From Candidatus Pacearchaeota archaeon (lineage in GTDB: Archaea > Nanobdellota > Nanobdellia > Pacearchaeales > GW2011-AR1): DNA of 64,000 bases. The first letter of the stretch is position 1. Each line of letters begins with the position of its first letter. A model generated the notes under the pieces. The model made no database searches. It saw only the letters and a program-made list of their open reading frames with translations, and was not told the DNA's origin. Below, piece after piece: positions 1,679-55,073 of this stretch. Location of the stretch: assembly GCA_016866975.1 (NCBI GenBank), contig VGKP01000001.1, positions 1 through 64,000 of the forward strand, written 5' to 3'. The position numbers were made by a program, and so were the translations under genes.

Positions 1679-2206
1679 TCATTTTGAAATTTCTCCTTGA
1701 ATGTATCTAAGAATCATATCTGTTCTCTTATTAACATCTGTTGCTGGAATATGTACTATTTTGTATCCTGCCATGATATAGACTTCTTTTAACTTACATT
1801 CAATCTGCATGGCGGCGTCATGGTTTTCAGCTCTAATTTCATTATTTTTTACAAAGCCCAAGTTTTCTACGAGAAAAACACCTGTATAGGCTCTTGTTTG
1901 TCTTTGTATCTCTCTGCTAATTTCTGTTTCAGGTTGAATATACGCTAGACCATCCAATATTCCTCGGTCTATAAAGATCCTCTCTAGATTTTTTGGAACT
2001 CTTTCTTCTCTCTGCATTTGCAGATTGAGAATCTTCTTTTGAAAATCTGGAGACTTCCAAGGCGAGGGATTTCCTTTTGCCTGCTCTAGCCTAATCACAT
2101 CCTCTGCTGCTTCTCTTATAATATATTCTCCTCTTCTTTCAAGTTCAAGCACTATACAGCTCTTGCCACTTCCAGGCCCACCAGTTAGTATGTATTTCTT
2201 AGTCAT
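1679..2206 (-). CDS. AAA_28 / NadR-Ttd14-type P-loop ATPase (possible nucleotide kinase)
   Basis: N-terminal LTGGPGSGKS Walker A, REAAEDVI and FIDRGILDGLAY. Confidence 0.85.
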   Translation of the reverse strand: MTKKYILTGGPGSGKSCIVLELERRGEYIIREAAEDVIRLEQAKGNPSPWKSPDFQKKILNLQMQREERVPKNLERIFIDRGILDGLAYIQPETEISREIQRQTRAYTGVFLVENLGFVKNNEIRAENHDAAMQIECKLKEVYIMAGYKIVHIPATDVNKRTDMILRYIQGEISK

Positions 2207-2492: not shown

Positions 2493-2717
2493 ATGGAAGA
2501 AAAAAACAAAGACACAAACCTTGCATACAAAGGAGATTGGTGCGAACAGACGGCAGAACTTGCCAGAGTAATGGGAAATAAAGAAATTATGGAAAGAAAC
2601 TATAGGCGAGCAATAGAAGCTTATGAACTTGGAGGATGGTTAGATCAGGCCATTAGAGTCGCAAAAATAATTGATGATAGTGACAAGGTCAGAGAATTGG
2701 AGGAAAAACTAAGATGA
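2493..2717 (+). CDS. small helical (TPR-like) hypothetical protein
   Basis: 74 aa helical-repeat pattern (NYRRAIEAYELGGWLDQAIRVA); ATGA overlap with upp. Confidence 0.6.
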   Translation: MEEKNKDTNLAYKGDWCEQTAELARVMGNKEIMERNYRRAIEAYELGGWLDQAIRVAKIIDDSDKVRELEEKLR

Positions 2718-3337
2718 TTAATAAGATAAATAATCCCGCGATCGAGAATCTACTCTTAAATCTTCGTAATCCTGGAACTAATTCTAAAAACTTCAGAGAG
2801 TCATTGGAAAAAATAGGAGAATATCTGGGCTACGAAATCTCTTTAGGATTAGAGACAATGGAAAAATATATCCTCGCATGCCTTGAAGAAGTTGCCAAAC
2901 ATAGGACATTAAAACAGTCTCCAGTGCTAATAACCATATTAAGGGCTGGATTGCCTCTCCACAGAGGTCTCCAGAATGTTTTTCCTGATTCTGAATCTGG
3001 GTTTATCGGAGCCATGAGGGATGAAGGAACACTCAAATCAAAAATTTATTACTCTGCAATTCCAGATATAAAAGATAAAGAAACAATCATAGTTGATACC
3101 ATGCTCGCCACAGGAGGAAGCCTGATAGATTGCGCAGAATTACTCAAGCAAAGAAACCCTAGAAGCATCAGCATTGTCTCAGCCATGGCTTCTAAGGAAG
3201 GAATAGACAGGATGATAAGATATGACTCTAATATCAAAGTGACTATTGCAGCCATAGATCCAATGCTAAATGACAAAGGGTATATAGTACCTGGACTTGG
3301 TGATGCAGGAGACAGAATATACGGGAAGAAATCATGA
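2714..3337 (+). CDS. upp: uracil phosphoribosyltransferase
   Basis: ILRAG, IIVDTMLATGGS PRPP-binding loop, YIVPGLGDAGDR C-terminal motif. Confidence 0.95.
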   Translation: MINKINNPAIENLLLNLRNPGTNSKNFRESLEKIGEYLGYEISLGLETMEKYILACLEEVAKHRTLKQSPVLITILRAGLPLHRGLQNVFPDSESGFIGAMRDEGTLKSKIYYSAIPDIKDKETIIVDTMLATGGSLIDCAELLKQRNPRSISIVSAMASKEGIDRMIRYDSNIKVTIAAIDPMLNDKGYIVPGLGDAGDRIYGKKS

Positions 3338-3783
3338 GGCAAACCACTTTCGGAATGATAAAACCTGAAAGTATAAAAGAAGGGCTTGAAACTGAGTTAA
3401 TTGAGAGAATTGAAGGTAAAGGTCTAAAGATATCTGGGAGAATAAAGAGAAAGTTGACTAGAGAGGAAGTAAGTATATTATACGGGCATGTTAGAGAGTC
3501 TATCCCCGATATTTATCCCCAAATTGAAGAGCATTTTACAATAAATGAATGCATTCTGCTCAAAGTAGAAGGAGATAATTCTGTCAATAGACTATTAGAT
3601 ATAAGAGGCGCGTCTAACCCTAAAGATGCATTACCTGGGTCAATAAGAGGAGATTACGCCAAAAATCAAGACTATGAAGTGCTCAGAGCCAAGAGAAGAG
3701 TTGCTCATAATTATTTTCATGCTGCCGGGACAGAGGAAGAAGCAAGAAGTATGATTTCTTGCTTGATGAGAAATGACTTCTAA
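3334..3783 (+). CDS. ndk: nucleoside-diphosphate kinase (divergent, copy 1)
   Basis: TFGMIKPE, GASNP..ALPGSIRGDY and catalytic His in NYFHAAG. Confidence 0.88.
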   Translation: MRQTTFGMIKPESIKEGLETELIERIEGKGLKISGRIKRKLTREEVSILYGHVRESIPDIYPQIEEHFTINECILLKVEGDNSVNRLLDIRGASNPKDALPGSIRGDYAKNQDYEVLRAKRRVAHNYFHAAGTEEEARSMISCLMRNDF

Positions 3784-6496
3784 GTTTTTCTTCTCTAAAA
3801 CTCTTGGATTTTATGTCTCTCTAGAGCCACTAAAAATTGACAGCCGTGTAAAAAATGCAGCCGATAAGGCGGGTATAAGCTTGGAATGGGACGATGAAGG
3901 AAGAATAAATTATATAGACTTTGACGATTCTAAGAGACTTCTTGAAGAACTAGGATCTTTCATGCTTACTCCTGCAAATTATTGGAAAGTTTTTGGAGAT
4001 GCTGAAGTTGAGGATAATAAAGAGATGATAAAATCCTTGATGTCCGATTCTTTTTGTGAGTGGCTTGATAGAGTATATGGCGCAGATGGATATTATATTG
4101 ACAATCCAAAGATTGTTTCTAAGCATAGTTATGGAGGAAGTAAGATAAAATCAAACGCGCCTTTTGGAAGACCAGGATGGCTAGATCCAAAAAATAATAT
4201 AAATGATAATGAAGGAGTTCCCCTAAGTGTAAAAATAAAAAGAGGCAAATTTGAGAGTAGCTGGAAATATTGGTCTCCTGATTTCAGTGTCACAAAGATA
4301 CCTTTTCTTGCTCCAATCAGAGGCTATGTGACATCCGTAGGAAAACCTTCGCTTGACTTGGGGATACCTGTAAATGCCAGGCAACCTGTACAGATGATAA
4401 GAGAATGCCGAAATACTCTACTATCATCTTCAATACCCCAAGAAGTTGTCCAAGAAGCTGTCAAAATTATATATCAAGGCTTTGAAAGTGAGTTATTTGA
4501 ATTCATAAAATCACATGGGCATTATTTCAAAGACGCAAAAGAATCTATTAGCATCTCATTGAGAGAAAATTTAATTGATGTGCTCGGAATGGTCAGAATA
4601 AAAGGTTGTAAAAATGAAAATATCAGACGCCATGTAACAAATTTAGTCGATATAGACTATGGCAAATCTGGATTCAAAGAATTTCGAGAATTTGTTGAAA
4701 CTTCTAGGGAAAGATTGAATGATGCCTTAAAATACAAAAAAGACATAGTCTTTGTGATGGGTCATAAGAATCCAGACACAGATACGGTTGTGAGCTCATT
4801 GTTTGAGGCCTGGAGGAATAATCTCATTAAGGAAGATTCAGCCTTTATTCCAATCCTGCAAAGTGAAAAGATGCCTGATGAAATACACGAACTTCTAGGA
4901 GATAGACTAACCTGTAATATAGTAAATTTCAATGACCCTCTGTATATCAAAGCAAAGAAATCTGGTCTTGCGAGATGGATATCTGTTGACCAGAATAGAG
5001 AACCTGAAGTCCAGAGGTTTTTCATATCTATCATTGATCATCACGTTCCATCTGAAATATCAAAAAAACAAGATATACCTAAGACATTGGATGTAATAGG
5101 ATCATGTGCAGCTATGATAACCAGAAAACTAGCAGGGATGGGGGTGGATTTTGACAAAGATACAGCTTTCATTCTTCATGGAGCTACCCTGATGGATACT
5201 GAGAACAGAGTTTCTCATAAAATGACTCCTCAAGATATATCTATAATGAATTTCTTAAAATCCAAGTCCGGAATTGGCGATGAGACTAGGTTTTATCAGG
5301 GACTTATGTCTGTACTATTGAACACTGATGACCCAGACAGACTATTCAATAGAGATTATAAGGAAGATTGGGGATTTGGATTTGCAGTCGCAAAGATAAA
5401 GGGAGGATTTTCCAAAGGCGGGAGAGTATTAAAAAATAAATTGTTAAGGGAAATAGCTGACTTGGCAAGGAGAAATAATCTCCAAAAAAACCTTCCATTG
5501 ACATTAACAAGGATAACTGACTATGATCAGGATAATTCTACAGTAAATCGCGAGAGAGTATATCTTTCCTATAATAGTTCTGCATCAAAGGATTTAAGGG
5601 CTACAATCAGGGAACTTATAATCAAGACTATCAAATTTGAATTTGGTAGCGTGAATTTCAAGGAAGGAAAAGATTGGATAGAGTTTTGGGGTACTGGTAT
5701 ACAATTGTCCAGGAAGAAGACTGCCCCCATATTAGAACCAGTAGTAAAAGCTTTTGACTCATATTTCTATTCTCCATCGAATAAACTATGGATAAAGAAA
5801 GATTTCCTGAAAAAATCCTCTGATCTTATGAAAGTAGAAAAGATATTGGATCATAAATTATCATTCGATGAGGATAAGAGAGTAAATTGGGTGACTTATC
5901 CAGAAGCAAAGAATATTGTAAGCATGCTTGGATTCTCAATTCTTTCTTTATCTGAATATTGGAAAGCATATGATGATGCAGTAAAGTCAAAAGACAGAGA
6001 TATGATCACCAACATGCAAGGATCTGGATTCGTTGAATTTCTAGATTCAGCCATAATAAAGAATAAATGGCTGGTAGATCATCCTAGAATAGAGAATGGA
6101 AAATTAATGGGAAAGAAGACTAAAGTAAAGGTCCCTAAAGATAGTCCTGGATTGATACATCCGGACAATATCGATAGAAGAACTGGGATTCCTGGTAATG
6201 TCCGTTCTACAAATGAATATGGGAATCCTAGGCTTTGGAGATACTGGGCACCTGATGCGGATGTAGTTATACCTGTAAGAAGTTATATTTTCCTTCTCAA
6301 GCAGCCATGTTGGGATGGGAAGTTTCATATAGATGACTGTTTTCCAAACCTAGGAATAAGACCCTGCACCCGAGAACAAATACGTCCTATAATAAACATT
6401 CGTATAAAGGGTAGCAGACTTGTAGTTTCCATAGTCCAAGATGGAGATGCTGTAGAATATATCTGGAAAAAAGGTGAATCTGGCCAGGAAGATTAG
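3773..6496 (+). CDS. 907-aa fusion: central DHH-family (PpaC-like) pyrophosphatase flanked by two homologous FGE/C-type-lectin-like domains
   Basis: GHKNPDTDTVVS, SVDQN, IIDHH, GSCAAMI and GATLMDTEN motifs of family II PPase. The N-terminal (~1-215) and C-terminal (~670-875) regions align with each other. Confidence 0.8.
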   Translation: MTSKFFFSKTLGFYVSLEPLKIDSRVKNAADKAGISLEWDDEGRINYIDFDDSKRLLEELGSFMLTPANYWKVFGDAEVEDNKEMIKSLMSDSFCEWLDRVYGADGYYIDNPKIVSKHSYGGSKIKSNAPFGRPGWLDPKNNINDNEGVPLSVKIKRGKFESSWKYWSPDFSVTKIPFLAPIRGYVTSVGKPSLDLGIPVNARQPVQMIRECRNTLLSSSIPQEVVQEAVKIIYQGFESELFEFIKSHGHYFKDAKESISISLRENLIDVLGMVRIKGCKNENIRRHVTNLVDIDYGKSGFKEFREFVETSRERLNDALKYKKDIVFVMGHKNPDTDTVVSSLFEAWRNNLIKEDSAFIPILQSEKMPDEIHELLGDRLTCNIVNFNDPLYIKAKKSGLARWISVDQNREPEVQRFFISIIDHHVPSEISKKQDIPKTLDVIGSCAAMITRKLAGMGVDFDKDTAFILHGATLMDTENRVSHKMTPQDISIMNFLKSKSGIGDETRFYQGLMSVLLNTDDPDRLFNRDYKEDWGFGFAVAKIKGGFSKGGRVLKNKLLREIADLARRNNLQKNLPLTLTRITDYDQDNSTVNRERVYLSYNSSASKDLRATIRELIIKTIKFEFGSVNFKEGKDWIEFWGTGIQLSRKKTAPILEPVVKAFDSYFYSPSNKLWIKKDFLKKSSDLMKVEKILDHKLSFDEDKRVNWVTYPEAKNIVSMLGFSILSLSEYWKAYDDAVKSKDRDMITNMQGSGFVEFLDSAIIKNKWLVDHPRIENGKLMGKKTKVKVPKDSPGLIHPDNIDRRTGIPGNVRSTNEYGNPRLWRYWAPDADVVIPVRSYIFLLKQPCWDGKFHIDDCFPNLGIRPCTREQIRPIINIRIKGSRLVVSIVQDGDAVEYIWKKGESGQED

Positions 6497-6554
6497 TGTG
6501 GAAGAATATTCTACAACAGATATTTATGTAGTCTTTTTTCTCAGAAATTTCAGA

Positions 6555-7049
6555 ATGGAACAAGAAACAAAACAACAGGAAACAGAAAGACTGGGAACGC
6601 AGGAAGCGACTCTGGCGCTCATAAAACCCGACGGAGTAGCTAGAGGGCTAACAATAGAGTGCATACAAAGAATAGAAAAAGCAGGTCTCAGGATTGCGAG
6701 AAAGAAAATGCTCTGGCTGAACAGAGGAAAAGCTGAAGAACTAAGAAAAGAAATCAGGGAAAAGCACCCCCTAATCTTTGAAGCGCTCATGGAATACATG
6801 ACGGAAGGGCCCTGCATAGCCCTCTTAATAGAAGGGGAAAGCACAATAGAATCACTCAGAAAAATCTGCGGAGCAACAAACCCCAAGGAAGCTGCTTCTG
6901 GAACAATACGTGGTGATTTTGGGGATAAAAAAGAAGATATGAAGGAGCTTTACAGGCAGGGCAAAGTCGTCAAGAACATAATACACTCCTCAGGAAATAA
7001 AGAAGAAGCGCAAGAAGAAATAAAAATAATCTTCGGAGGTGCAGAATGA
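6555..7049 (+). CDS. ndk: nucleoside-diphosphate kinase (divergent, copy 2)
   Basis: TLALIKPDGV, YMTEGP, RKICGATNP, GTIRGDF and NIIHSS. Start probably the ATG at 6555 rather than 6474. Confidence 0.9.
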   Translation: MEQETKQQETERLGTQEATLALIKPDGVARGLTIECIQRIEKAGLRIARKKMLWLNRGKAEELRKEIREKHPLIFEALMEYMTEGPCIALLIEGESTIESLRKICGATNPKEAASGTIRGDFGDKKEDMKELYRQGKVVKNIIHSSGNKEEAQEEIKIIFGGAE

Positions 7050-7516
7050 CCTTTGAGCTTCGCGAAAGAAAAGAGGGGGAGATAATCACTCAATACGATC
7101 CGATAAATAGAAGCATGAACATCCTCGATGCGCAGGGAAAGCCATTCAGGGGACAATTTCATCAGGGGCTCATCACTTATCCTGTAAGAATGGTTTTGGA
7201 AATAGACTCAAGGTGCAATTTCAGATGCCAATATTGCTCTGAAGGAATAAATCCTCCAAAATTCAACATCTCAAAAAGAAAAATTATGTGGCTTATAGAT
7301 GAAGCGGAAGAAATGAAAGTCCACGAATTAACTTTAAGGGGTGGCGAGGCAACTCTCCATCCATGGGCTGAGGGCTATGGCTTGAAGCTGAGGCAGGCAG
7401 AAATTGCGGACAGGCACTATGGATATTACCTCGGTTGGCTCAAGAGCCTCGATAGGAAACCTGATGTCGACCCATTTATTGTAATGTCTTTGGTGAGGCA
7501 ATATGATGGGATATGA
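7046..7516 (+). pseudogene. radical SAM protein, truncated or internally deleted
   Basis: VLEIDSRCNFRCQYC (CxxxCxxC) and LRGGEATLHP, then only ~50 aa before the stop; too short for a complete TIM-barrel radical SAM domain. Confidence 0.75.
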
Positions 7517-7566: not shown

Positions 7567-8112
7567 ATGAAAGAAATAACTAGAAAACAAGCTGAAATAG
7601 CACTTTCTGGGATGGCAATAGTCCCTGGATTCGAAAGCATGATCTTGGAGTCTATGGGCTATAAAATTGTTGAACCTCGATTGAGCCTGAAGTATCTGAT
7701 AAATCGGTCAAGAGACAGATACACTTATTGGACAGTTGATGGATTAGATGAGGCAGAGACAGAGAATTTTCTTGTAGCTGCAGGGCCAGTAATCGGGAAA
7801 TACACTGGAAGAACCACATTGGGAATAGGAAAGTGGAGAGAGCTTTGGCTTGAATTTGCCAGAAAAGATAGTTTGGACAAAGTTGTAAGCCTTGAAATGG
7901 CTAACTTGCCTATAACTGCTTCAGACAGCACAGAATTTAACTCCAGAAACTGCTCAATTATAGGGGCAAGAATAGATGTTGTTGGCAGAGATATGATAGA
8001 TGCAAACTACCTTGACCCTAAAGGGAATGTCCTGGAGAAATTCAGAGTAGACTTGAACGAGAAATATCAGCAAGCTGTAGACCAAAAATCTACAACAGAT
8101 AGAAAGGTATAA
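7567..8112 (+). CDS. hypothetical protein
   Basis: 181-aa ORF with upstream GGGGGGAG RBS; no recognisable motif. Confidence 0.65.
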   Translation: MKEITRKQAEIALSGMAIVPGFESMILESMGYKIVEPRLSLKYLINRSRDRYTYWTVDGLDEAETENFLVAAGPVIGKYTGRTTLGIGKWRELWLEFARKDSLDKVVSLEMANLPITASDSTEFNSRNCSIIGARIDVVGRDMIDANYLDPKGNVLEKFRVDLNEKYQQAVDQKSTTDRKV

Positions 8113-8140: not shown

Positions 8141-8776
8141 ATGATGAAGGATCTATCCATAAAGTTGGCAAAAGAAGTTGAACCCTTTTATGATAAAAAT
8201 GGTGCACACGACTTAGCTCACGTCAAAAGAGTTCTTGATATTGCTGAACAAATTGCAAAAACAGAAAAAGGTGTCGATTTAGACATTCTGCGCGCAGGAG
8301 TATTGCTTCATGATATTGCCCGTAAAATGGAAGAAGAAGGCAAATGTGAAAATCATGCTATAAAAGGAGCGGAAATGGCCCCTGAACTCTTAAGGAATAT
8401 AGGTTTTCCAGAAGATAAGATAAAAGCTGTTCAGTATTGCGTGCTTGTACATCGTAAAAGTAAGAGAATCAAAGCAGAGACTATTGAAGCTAAAATATTA
8501 CAAGATGCTGATAGAATTGAGATATTTGGAGCAGTGGGCATTGCACGCACATTTGCTGATCTTTCTGCTCGAGGAATGCTTCTTCATTCCAATAAATCGA
8601 GAAAACTGACTTATTTTGAAGATACTGATAGTGATAGTATCTTGGAATATATGAGAAGCTTACTATTTGCTACAAGAAAAAAATTTCATACCAAAAAAGG
8701 ATGGGATATTATTAAGCCGCGCTTGGAATTTATTAGGAATTTTATTGTTCAATTTGAAAAAGAGTGGAGAGAATGA
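8141..8776 (+). CDS. HD-domain metal-dependent phosphohydrolase
   Basis: HDLAHVKRV, LLHDIA, VHR and LQDADRIE motifs. Confidence 0.9.
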   Translation: MMKDLSIKLAKEVEPFYDKNGAHDLAHVKRVLDIAEQIAKTEKGVDLDILRAGVLLHDIARKMEEEGKCENHAIKGAEMAPELLRNIGFPEDKIKAVQYCVLVHRKSKRIKAETIEAKILQDADRIEIFGAVGIARTFADLSARGMLLHSNKSRKLTYFEDTDSDSILEYMRSLLFATRKKFHTKKGWDIIKPRLEFIRNFIVQFEKEWRE

Positions 8777-9489
8777 ATTCAATAGAGAAAACCCTTGAGA
8801 AGATTGGATTATCGCAGAACGAGATTAAAGTGTATTTGACTCTTAATGATCAAGGAAGCATGAAAGCAGGAAGGATTGCGAAGCTTGCGCATATGGATCG
8901 CAGTAGTGCCTATAATGCAATTCAGATGCTTCTTGATAAAGGCCTTGCGAGTTATGTCTTAATTGGGAAAGTGAAATGGTTTCAAGCTACTGGGCCACAA
9001 CGCATTTTGGAATACTTGAAAGAGCAACAAGATGATGTCATGGCTGTCCTGCCAGAATTGCAGGAAAGACATAAACGCAAGAAGATTGAGGGGCAAGTTA
9101 GGTTGTTTAAGGGAGTGAAAGGGGTGAAATCAGTGTTTCTTGATATGATTCGGACGGGAAAAGATAATTATGTCTTTGGAAGTGAAGGTCAGTTTTCTGC
9201 ACGAATGCCTGAGTTTGCTTATCAATTCAGCAGGATGAAGAAGGAGAAAGGTATGAAGACTCAAATAATTTTACGCAAGGGGCAACGAGAATTGGATGTC
9301 AAATCATCTGATCACAAATATATCTCTAACATTGCAGAAAGTCCTGCGGTAACGAATATCTATGGAGATAAAATTGCGATAATTATATGGACTGACGAGC
9401 CTGAAGCGATTATTATAGAGAATGCAGCCGCCGCGAAAGCATATAAATCATACTTTGACTTTATGTGGAAGAATGGGAATAAGCCTTAA
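8773..9489 (+). CDS. TrmB-family transcriptional regulator
   Basis: LEKIGLSQNEIKVYLTL wHTH N-terminus with TrmB-like C-terminal domain; ATGA overlap with the HD gene gives start 8773. Confidence 0.85.
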   Translation: MNSIEKTLEKIGLSQNEIKVYLTLNDQGSMKAGRIAKLAHMDRSSAYNAIQMLLDKGLASYVLIGKVKWFQATGPQRILEYLKEQQDDVMAVLPELQERHKRKKIEGQVRLFKGVKGVKSVFLDMIRTGKDNYVFGSEGQFSARMPEFAYQFSRMKKEKGMKTQIILRKGQRELDVKSSDHKYISNIAESPAVTNIYGDKIAIIIWTDEPEAIIIENAAAAKAYKSYFDFMWKNGNKP

Positions 9490-9595: not shown

Positions 9596-10228
9596 ATGAT
9601 TGTAATAAATTTCAAGAATTATGTATTTGGGGCGAAAGCTATCGATTTAGTAAGGAAGATTGACATTTACCTAAATAAGTCAGTTGTGGCTGTCTCTTTG
9701 ATTGATTTGGTAGATATAGTGAAGAATACTACCTTGCCTGTATATGCACAGCATATTGATGCGCAAGAAGAGGGAAGAGCAACTGGATTTGTCATTCCCG
9801 AGATTGTTGCTGCATCTGGCGCTAAAGGTACATTACTTAATCATTCAGAACATCCTCTAAAGATAACTGAGATAAAAAAAGCACTTGATAGGTGCCATGA
9901 TGCTGGATTGAAAGTTATATTATGCGCTTCTACGCTTGCACAGGCAAAGAAATTTGTTGCTCTTAAGCCCCATGCTCTTGCATTTGAGGATCCTGCTCTT
10001 ATTTCTACAGGGAAATCCATTACATCTCATAAGGCGCATGCTCTTAAGGAATTTGTCGATTTGGTTAAAGGAAGTGAGGTTATACCTCTTTGTGGAGCAG
10101 GGATAAGCAATGCAGAGGATGTGAAAGAAGCACTTGCTTTGGGATGTATGGGAGTCTTGGTCTCTTCTGCTGTGGCGCATAGCAACGATCCTGAGAAGTT
10201 TCTTAAAGAAGTTTCAAGAATCGTATGA
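9596..10228 (+). CDS. tpiA: triosephosphate isomerase (archaeal type)
   Basis: INFKNY, AQH, LLNHSE, FEDPALISTG and LCGAGIS motifs. Confidence 0.93.
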   Translation: MIVINFKNYVFGAKAIDLVRKIDIYLNKSVVAVSLIDLVDIVKNTTLPVYAQHIDAQEEGRATGFVIPEIVAASGAKGTLLNHSEHPLKITEIKKALDRCHDAGLKVILCASTLAQAKKFVALKPHALAFEDPALISTGKSITSHKAHALKEFVDLVKGSEVIPLCGAGISNAEDVKEALALGCMGVLVSSAVAHSNDPEKFLKEVSRIV

Positions 10229-54212: not shown

Positions 54213-55073
54213 ATGTTAATAGCTGGTTTTCCTGATACTAGAGAGATTGCTAAGAGAGTTGCACAGTCATTAGGGGCACATTATACTGAAGTCAAAGTAA
54301 AAGATTTCCCTGATTCTGAGTTCCATATAAAATTAAAGAAGAATCCTGCCCATCAGACTGTTGTTTTCATCACATCAATCACCAAGGATCCAGATGATAA
54401 ATTGATAGAGACTATCCTTGCATCAGGGATAGCAAAAGATTATGGAGCAAAGAAAGTAGTAGTGGTCGCAACATATTTCCCCTATATGAGGCAAGACAAG
54501 CATTTCAAGAAATATGATAGTTTCTCTTCAAAATATATTCTGGATATGTTCAAGCATGTTGATAAACTGCTTGTCATTGATCCCCACCTGCACAGAATAC
54601 CTAAGATGGAAAAATTGCTGCCGCAAGCGCATGCTTTCACAGTGAATGACCTTCTTGTAGAGTACATAAAGAAAAGATTCAAGGATGACTTTTCCATAGT
54701 CGGTCCAGATGAAGAGAGTGCACAGTGGAGCCAGAAGATAGCAGACAAGCTTGGAAAGAAAGTGGTTATACTGAAAAAAACAAGATTCTCTTCGACACAT
54801 GTCAAGATAAAAGAAAAACCTCTTGGAAAAAATATAATAATCATAGATGATATAATAAGCACTGGAAAGACAATAGTGGAGACGATAAAGATGGCCAAAA
54901 GGCAGGGAGCAAATAGGATAATCTGCATGGGTATCCATGGAGTACTTGTAAATAAGGCGGATAAGCACATCTCAAAGCACGCTGAACTGATAACTACCAA
55001 CACCATAGAAAACAAATATGCAAAGATAGATGTTTCACCAGCAATTGTAAACATTCTGAAGAAATATCGCTAA
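54213..55073 (+). CDS. prs: ribose-phosphate pyrophosphokinase
   Basis: FPDSE, YFPYMRQDK, IDPHL, VGPD and IIDDIISTGKT motifs. Confidence 0.95.
   Translation: MLIAGFPDTREIAKRVAQSLGAHYTEVKVKDFPDSEFHIKLKKNPAHQTVVFITSITKDPDDKLIETILASGIAKDYGAKKVVVVATYFPYMRQDKHFKKYDSFSSKYILDMFKHVDKLLVIDPHLHRIPKMEKLLPQAHAFTVNDLLVEYIKKRFKDDFSIVGPDEESAQWSQKIADKLGKKVVILKKTRFSSTHVKIKEKPLGKNIIIIDDIISTGKTIVETIKMAKRQGANRIICMGIHGVLVNKADKHISKHAELITTNTIENKYAKIDVSPAIVNILKKYR

Follow-up and report, generated by a model that had tools for sequence, protein, structure and literature searches.

We analysed a 64,000-nucleotide stretch of DNA (hereafter the window) comprising positions 1 to 64,000 of contig VGKP01000001.1 from a Candidatus Pacearchaeota archaeon, a DPANN archaeon whose 806-kb, 89% complete genome comes from lake-water metagenomes. 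Our subject is a row of six plus-strand genes near the start of the window. It encodes a 74-aa open reading frame (ORF), uracil phosphoribosyltransferase (UPRT, gene upp), a nucleoside diphosphate kinase (NDK1), a 907-aa protein in which a DHH/DHHA2 phosphohydrolase core lies between two lectin-fold domains, a second nucleoside diphosphate kinase (NDK2) and a truncated radical SAM protein. A first-pass annotation had read these six genes as one system for the production of a modified uridine nucleotide.

ORF and family scans agreed with that annotation on the gene row, its coordinates and its overlaps, and all six plus-strand ORFs were found where it had placed them. Adjacent genes overlap by 4 nt between the first ORF (2493-2717) and upp (2714-3337), by 4 nt between upp and NDK1 (3334-3783), by 11 nt between NDK1 and the DHH gene (3773-6496), and by 4 nt where the radical SAM ORF starts (7046) before NDK2 ends (7049). 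The sole gap in the row is a possible 58 nt ahead of NDK2, which could start either at a GTG at 6474, overlapping the DHH gene, or at an ATG at 6555, leaving the gap; comparison with the orthologue at a related locus (L092) makes the ATG the more likely start. The 74-aa ORF had been called TPR-like, a description that found no backing, since neither Pfam nor NCBIfam gave a TPR match at E 0.01. It had no match of any kind in Pfam, NCBIfam (E 0.01), PHROG or PADLOC, and no tblastn relative among 42 related loci. The genes of the row and its flanks are as follows.

1679..2206, minus strand: AAA_28 P-loop protein, nucleoside/nucleotide-kinase-like, divergent from the row (PF13521, 93.8 bits)
2493..2717, plus strand: 74-aa ORF without family, not conserved, overlapping upp
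2714..3337, plus strand: upp, uracil phosphoribosyltransferase (NF001097, 211.2 bits)
3334..3783, plus strand: NDK1, accessory-lineage NDK and predicted partner of the DHH protein (PF00334, 75.9 bits)
3773..6496, plus strand: 907-aa lectin-DHH/DHHA2-lectin protein (AlphaFold model, fold matches, invariant residues)
6555..7049 (alternative GTG start 6474), plus strand: NDK2, accessory-lineage NDK, orthologous to the NDK found with the intact radical SAM gene (PF00334, 131.7 bits)
7046..7516, plus strand: radical SAM remnant, ~229 internal residues lost in frame, keeping CxxxCxxC and GGE only
7567..8112, plus strand: 181-aa ORF without detectable relatives, separating the HD gene from the radical SAM remnant
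8141..8776, plus strand: HD-domain phosphohydrolase, YedJ/HDIG-like (PF01966, 54 bits)
8764..9489, plus strand: TrmB-family regulator, right flank of the radical SAM/NDK cassette (PF01978, 45.8 bits)

The lectin-DHH-lectin protein and its NDK partner

An AlphaFold (AF2) model built from 40 homologues (pLDDT 88, pTM 0.81) divides the 907-aa protein into a lectin-fold domain (residues 1-215), a helical linker, a DHH/DHHA2 core (~320-660), a second lectin-fold domain (~664-867) and a small beta domain. In Foldseek searches the core matched family II pyrophosphatases (PPases; E 1.7e-13, TM 0.76 on the target) and, no better than these, yeast PPX1 (2qb6; E 2.6e-12, 391 columns), the fold match spanning both DHH and DHHA2. 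Residues H331, D335, D337, D406, D422, H423, H424, D475, K530, R647 and K648 are invariant in the 40 homologues. The metal ligands H9, D13, D15, D75, H97, H98 and D149 of the PPases in the PDB (B. subtilis numbering) correspond to H331, D335, D337, D406, H423, H424 and D475, respectively. The family motifs GHKNPDTD, VDQN and DHH align to GHQNPDTD, VDHN and DHH of the Bacillus enzyme, and the Streptococcus enzyme aligns as well; K530, within RDYKED, aligns with DAKE of 1k23 and is the K205 equivalent, as D475 is that of D149. The sequence QLSRKK (R647, K648) is invariant too, and it contains the SRKK motif of PpaC.

Sequence profiles place the protein less securely. It scored 27.2 bits against Pfam DHH, just below the cut-off of 28.1, and missed the curated family II PPase cut-offs (NF003877, 52.6 versus 283 bits; NF011447, 62.3 versus 522 bits); its sequence-nearest solved relatives are bacterial family II PPases at ~16-19% identity. 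Fold and motifs nevertheless bear out the DHH assignment. We regard the core as a putative phosphoanhydride hydrolase; it has the full set of catalytic residues found in a Mn-dependent family II PPase, PPX1 or PRUNE-type hydrolase.

The N-terminal flank is a homologue of the C-terminal one (26% identity, E 1e-23). A separate model of the N domain (pLDDT 93) had its best fold match in TaqVP (5vf4; Z 11.1, rmsd 3.6, 187 residues aligned), and all top 50 matches were of the C-type-lectin/formylglycine-generating enzyme (FGE) fold; further matches were CarF (Z 10.1), TvpA (2y3c; Z 9.7) and SenA, PvdO, EgtB and pFGE (Z 9.5, 9.3, 9.1 and 9.0). Neither flank gave a Pfam match up to E 10, FGE-sulfatase PF03781 included. 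Given the fold match, the homologous flanks and the fold and motifs of the core, the modelled architecture of lectin fold, family-II-PPase-like DHH/DHHA2 and lectin fold is correct, in line with the CLec-DHH-CLec arrangement proposed in the first-pass annotation. The lectin subfamily comprises 171 representative clusters among 1.84 billion proteins, nearly all of them in the same ~900-aa architecture. A search of small proteins for a stand-alone lectin domain yielded just 19, mostly fragments on short contigs, and in the ESM Atlas the structure rows gave DHH/DHHA2 clusters only, with no usable feature match. The fold is shared with the variable proteins of diversity-generating retroelements (DGRs; TaqVP, TvpA) and with CarF, PvdO, EgtB, SenA and pFGE; unlike the DGR variable proteins, the flanks are strongly conserved in sequence and not hypervariable, and no DGR is evident.

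We scanned 42 genome loci of the DHH family with the window proteins and clustered the neighbouring genes. The hosts are DPANN archaea, Patescibacteria, SR1, Omnitrophota, Planctomycetota, Spirochaetia, Acidobacteriota and others. In 11 of the 42 loci an NDK gene immediately precedes the DHH gene on its own strand, and in two more (L024 and L034) the two are fused, giving 13 NDK-linked loci, which come from DPANN archaea, Patescibacteria and Omnitrophota; N-terminal NDK fusions also occur in the protein clusters P0054, P0061, P0066 and P0067. AAA_28 genes are adjacent in 10 loci, five of them DPANN and five from Planctomycetota, Acidobacteriota and Spirochaetia. Strict co-occurrence of AAA_28 and DHH genes was ruled out: AAA_28 is found in 13 of 61 relatives, mostly without a DHH gene, which is itself present in 2 of the 61. 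Uridine kinase (Udk) genes adjoin the DHH gene in L019, in the order NDK-Udk-DHH, and in L039, and adenylate kinase (Adk) genes lie near it in three loci. At a locus of Patescibacteria UBA2591 (L029:3695-6580) a 961-aa Udk-CYTH-UPRT-Cmk fusion is encoded ~0.85 kb downstream of the DHH gene, and in P0150 (2362 aa) the DHH protein is itself fused to a Udk-CYTH unit related to that of L029, CYTH being a triphosphate-tunnel domain. The recurrence of Udk, UPRT, Cmk and Adk genes beside the DHH gene supports a salvage context. In the congener (G001, L017) upp lies 5 kb from the DHH gene and on the other strand. A radical SAM gene or a downstream NDK was found at none of the 42 loci.

Two members of the family stand out in how they are encoded. 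In an Omnitrophota metagenome-assembled genome (MAG) a 575-kb contig holds a single stop-free frame of more than 7,400 codons (L034:2-22270) with TIM, GNAT, methyltransferase, M50 peptidase, NDK, lectin-DHH-lectin, WD40, GDPD, HEAT, cation-efflux and PHP domains, the NDK again standing immediately before the DHH unit. In an SR1 MAG the homologue (L012/L040:4949-7696) is readable only with TGA as Gly and is followed by uracil-DNA glycosylase, not NDK.

The genome encodes three NDKs, two in the window and a third on contig 8 (G000:C8:29307-29828). NDK1 and NDK2 both exceed the PF00334 cut-off of 27 bits without reaching the 155 bits set for the NCBIfam equivalog. Both keep the catalytic His and the nucleotide-binding Lys, Arg and Asn, and K10, Y50, R91, R105, N126 and H129 do not vary across the linked clade. 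That clade emerged from a maximum-likelihood tree, in which 16 of 17 NDKs linked or fused to DHH genes, from archaea and bacteria alike, fell together (support 99/94) with NDK1 nested inside. A second tree, to which we added the NDKs accompanying intact radical SAM genes, had a 99/95 split that sets every DHH-linked and every radical-SAM-linked NDK, together with NDK1, NDK2 and one NDK adjacent to upp, apart from the housekeeping NDKs (those of 20 relatives and the genome's third copy). Within it, NDK2 is sister to the radical-SAM-linked NDK of L092 (66% identity, support 99/97) and NDK1 pairs with that of L094 (99/88). Both window NDKs belong to an accessory lineage, apart from housekeeping NDKs, and on this comparative evidence the pair of NDK and lectin-DHH-lectin protein is a real, conserved module. 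The third NDK has a 197-aa frame in which an insert splits the Pfam match; the same type of split occurs in ~12 relatives, and NDKs of this type cluster with the housekeeping ones.

The radical SAM remnant and its intact relatives

Residues 31-106 of the radical SAM remnant match residues 1-76 of a congeneric relative from genome G012 (344 aa, 5'-incomplete; 71% identity), and its residues 107-136 match residues 306-335 of the same protein (63% identity). Against relatives of 365-386 aa, ~229 residues of the barrel have been lost in frame. The remnant retains CNFRCQYC and RGGEAT and lacks a complete partial-TIM-barrel core; PF04055 covers the CxxxCxxC-to-GGE part alone, with 28.6 bits against a cut-off of 29.5, and beyond this sub-cut-off match the genome yielded no further one to radical SAM proteins. 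Contigs from other lake samples (X4, X7) bridge the junction (~7364) without difference, so the deletion is genuine and no artefact. Judged from its sequence, the radical SAM gene is dead at this locus. The first-pass annotation had suggested recovering an intact allele. Intact relatives were found on six contigs elsewhere; no intact allele of the window gene was seen in the contigs of four lake-water runs, which show presence and not absence. Base composition was considered as a sign of import, NDK2 (43.2% GC) and the remnant (43.5%) being richer than their neighbours (36-39%); this is not decisive because NDK genes are GC-richer in L092 too.

Counting the remnant, the radical SAM family occurs in 4 of 401 genomes of the order. 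The six contigs that carry intact relatives are independent, and AAA_28 lies beside the radical SAM gene on five of them, often divergent as in the window. An NDK gene accompanies it on four (adjacent in three, one gene away in L092), and a TrmB orthologue lies within 2.5 kb on five. A called gene with a DHH Pfam match was found at none of the six loci. As controls, AAA_28 and TrmB were both absent from beside the housekeeping NDK genes of 20 relatives, and the TrmB-orthologue loci of 13 relatives have AAA_28 alongside once and NDK never. The latter result shows the cassettes to be more than ancestral synteny around TrmB. The TrmB orthologues that adjoin cassettes (L017, L027, L032, L092, L093, L094) are 69-83% identical. 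At the closest intact locus (L092:20-7058), genes for a B12-binding radical SAM protein, a dihydroorotate-dehydrogenase-family protein and a second small radical SAM protein share the row, and a B12-radical SAM gene also adjoins the G012 copy (L067).

The family fits no curated model, its sequence-nearest enzymes being of the SkfB, CteB, BlsE and PqqE type. Against the viperin model NF038283 the remnant scored 25.6 bits and the intact relatives 41-48 bits, compared with a cut-off of 180, and the matches cover the N-terminal third only. Viperins have kinase neighbours, as in eukaryotic viperin-CMPK2 and in the prokaryotic pVips. The intact cassette likewise pairs a radical SAM gene with NDK and a P-loop kinase-like gene; it differs in that its enzyme is nearer to the SkfB, CteB, BlsE and PqqE type, and the window copy is deleted.

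Nucleotide metabolism around the row

Upp is a full-length match to its families (NF001097, cut-off 114 bits; PF14681, 165.6 bits versus 27) and scored slightly below the cut-off for TIGR01091 (203 versus 208.35 bits). The AAA_28 protein spans profile positions 1-164 of 164 in PF13521 (cut-off 27 bits) and weakly matches deoxynucleoside kinase 2jas (E 0.016) and the phage thymidylate kinase phrog_2107 (E 3e-6), the latter being its sole match in PHROGs. The HD protein reached 92 bits with NF007515, below the cut-off of that model, and HD genes recur close to these cassettes in L007, L008, L015 and L131. For the 181-aa ORF there was no family match in Pfam, NCBIfam, PHROG or PADLOC, and no tblastn relative in the related loci examined.

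DPANN archaea and Patescibacteria are generally without de novo nucleotide synthesis. In the present genome a phosphoribosyl pyrophosphate (PRPP) synthase gene lies within the window (54225-54926) and a PyrH-like kinase is encoded outside the row; searches of the 89%-complete genome recovered neither orotidine monophosphate (OMP) decarboxylase nor CTP synthase. A family I pyrophosphatase is encoded at G000:C5:9377-9832. This enzyme was seen in 4 of 61 related genomes, including the present one (G000) and the congener G001, which both have the lectin-DHH-lectin protein, and the other 57 show none. The idea that the DHH protein serves as the genome's only PPase was thereby ruled out, and this protein is not needed merely as the PPase of the cell.

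Genes for RpiB, Rpe and TIM flank the cluster (403-1511 and 9596-10228 in the window), RpiB and Rpe lying just upstream, and the elongation factor 2 (EF-2) gene is also a neighbour. A transketolase gene adjoins upp in the congener (L007). Pentose-phosphate and nucleotide genes thus lie together. In the same genome (G001, L007:3283-3799) a ParE/YoeB-type toxin and a VapB-like antitoxin lie between upp and the AAA_28/NDK/DHH genes, which fits a variable region.

Origin and function of the row

The reading that we favour, at somewhat better than even confidence, is that the row consists of two recurrent nucleotide-kinase cassettes and upp, joined together, and that what works in it is a base-to-nucleoside-triphosphate (NTP) line and the NDK-DHH module, in which NDK1 would be translationally coupled to the lectin-DHH-lectin protein. 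The cassette of divergent AAA_28, NDK2-radical SAM and TrmB would be the framework, inside which two blocks were set: the 74-aa ORF, upp, NDK1 and the lectin-DHH-lectin gene between AAA_28 and NDK2, and the 181-aa ORF and HD gene between the radical SAM remnant and TrmB. Decay of the radical SAM gene, with loss of most of its barrel, would have come afterwards. At the level of its family, Upp is expected to convert uracil and PRPP to uridine monophosphate (UMP) and pyrophosphate (PPi). The step from UMP to UDP would then fall to the PyrH-like kinase encoded outside the row or to the AAA_28 protein, and NDK1 and NDK2, again as expected of their family, would complete UTP. The putative DHH hydrolase may cleave PPi, which would pull the Upp reaction, or else short polyphosphate or a nucleoside polyphosphate, beside its NDK partner, with the lectin-fold domains perhaps acting as ligand-binding or regulatory wings, for which the CBS inserts of CBS-type family II PPases provide a precedent.

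Several observations weigh against this explanation. With a family I PPase encoded as well, plain PPi removal presents no obvious need for so large a protein; upp lies near the DHH gene in few loci only; and most bacterial DHH loci, in Planctomycetota, Spirochaetia and others, are without an adjacent NDK.

That UPRT, the kinases, the DHH protein and the radical SAM enzyme form one dedicated system, whose product is a modified uridine nucleotide used in defence or signalling, now seems highly improbable. The idea draws on the tight coupling of the six ORFs, on the company that intact radical SAM relatives keep with NDK and AAA_28, which resembles viperin-plus-kinase logic, on the patchy spread of the radical SAM (4/401 genomes of the order, remnant included) and DHH (2/61 relatives) genes, and on weak pVip matches to the Fe-S motif. 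It has to contend with the loss of ~229 core residues in a form that is the one seen in several samples, with the mutual absence of the two partners (no radical SAM gene at 42 DHH loci, no called DHH-Pfam gene at six radical SAM loci), with the failure of the radical SAM family to approach the viperin cut-off (41-48 versus 180 bits), and with the silence of PADLOC on the other genes of the row. The six genes are not co-conserved at either set of loci and so do not hold together as one system. Since the radical SAM enzyme is dead, no modified nucleotide would be made at the locus, and nothing points to such a product; as for the defence role proposed with it, no component fits a known defence family, and PADLOC gave just weak matches, to pVip on the Fe-S motif and to Cas3-HD on the HD protein. 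Two parts of the first-pass annotation survive in altered form. The linkage to salvage and kinases is borne out by NDK at 13 of 42 loci, AAA_28 at 10, and Udk, UPRT and Cmk neighbours, though not as a six-gene system, and the association of radical SAM with kinases has a comparative basis because intact relatives sit with NDK, AAA_28 and TrmB, even if the copy here has been inactivated.

The opposite extreme, that unrelated housekeeping genes of nucleotide and pentose metabolism came to lie side by side by chance in a genome that is small and dense with genes, is very doubtful as an account of the whole row. RpiB, Rpe, TIM and EF-2 are next door, not even the congener G001 keeps the gene order, its upp being 5 kb off on the other strand, and the small ORFs are not conserved, all of which would fit it. 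Set against this, NDK and DHH genes are repeatedly adjacent or fused in different phyla and a dedicated NDK clade goes with them, the set of AAA_28, NDK, radical SAM and TrmB recurs as well, and the control loci differ (no AAA_28 or TrmB at housekeeping NDK loci of 20 relatives; AAA_28 once and NDK never at TrmB loci of 13). Chance holds just for the small ORFs and perhaps upp, and is contradicted for the NDK-DHH and NDK-radical SAM pairs. A different substrate is the issue in a further alternative, which we consider unlikely: the DHH enzyme could be a PRUNE/PPX1-like short-chain exopolyphosphatase or nucleoside-tetraphosphate hydrolase complexed with NDK, clearing over-phosphorylated by-products or processing short polyphosphate. 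Its core matches yeast PPX1 as well as it does PPases, and its pairing and fusion with NDK mirror animal PRUNE1-NME1/2 and Drosophila prune-awd. A substrate of this kind stays in play because a family I PPase is already present in the genome, the family is tied to many different nucleotide kinases, and CYTH domains occur in the fusions of L029 and P0150. On the other hand, bacterial family II PPases are its sequence-nearest solved relatives, and the disordered, NME-binding C-terminal tail of PRUNE1 is without counterpart here.

Among described systems, the family II PPase is the closest enzyme and PRUNE-NME the closest partnership. PpaC (B. subtilis 1k23/1wpm, Streptococcus 1i74) shares the DHH and DHHA2 core and its motifs with the window protein, which adds two lectin-fold domains and a helical linker absent from described PPases, is paired or fused with NDK, and misses the equivalog cut-offs. 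PRUNE1-NME1/2 and Drosophila prune/awd (Killer of prune) are likewise partnerships of a DHH/DHHA2 phosphohydrolase and NDK; here the partnership is known from operon coupling, gene fusion and the dedicated NDK clade alone, and PRUNE1 has no lectin-fold domains. PRUNE1 has been reported to be a short-chain exopolyphosphatase and to bind NME via its disordered C-terminal tail (PMC11156750). In the open-access literature we found nothing on a prokaryotic NDK-DHH pairing, a lectin-fold PPase or a dedicated NDK lineage, nor on an AAA_28/radical SAM/NDK/TrmB cassette.

The cassettes may also be read together, tentatively and well short of even confidence, as an undescribed DPANN cassette of AAA_28, radical SAM, accessory NDK and TrmB in which kinases supply an NTP for conversion by a non-viperin radical SAM enzyme, after the manner of viperin. 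Its accessory NDK would be an NTP-supplying or partner subunit shared with the lectin-DHH-lectin effector, the effectors would be interchangeable and would move between archaea and bacteria, and the window would hold both, the radical SAM one recently inactivated.

Taken together, these results correct the annotation of the locus from a six-gene system to two cassettes and upp, with one cassette dead. The kinase-flanked, unclassified radical SAM family is a candidate for new nucleotide chemistry, though broken in this genome. A lectin-winged, PPase/PRUNE-like hydrolase with an NDK partner would be a genetically simple and directly assayable prokaryotic counterpart of the long-puzzling animal PRUNE-NME pair, and the dedicated NDK lineage travels with two different partners and crosses the boundary between archaea and bacteria. 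The scavenging of bases and nucleosides to NTPs is central to the biology of such cells, here one in which neither OMP decarboxylase nor CTP synthase was found.

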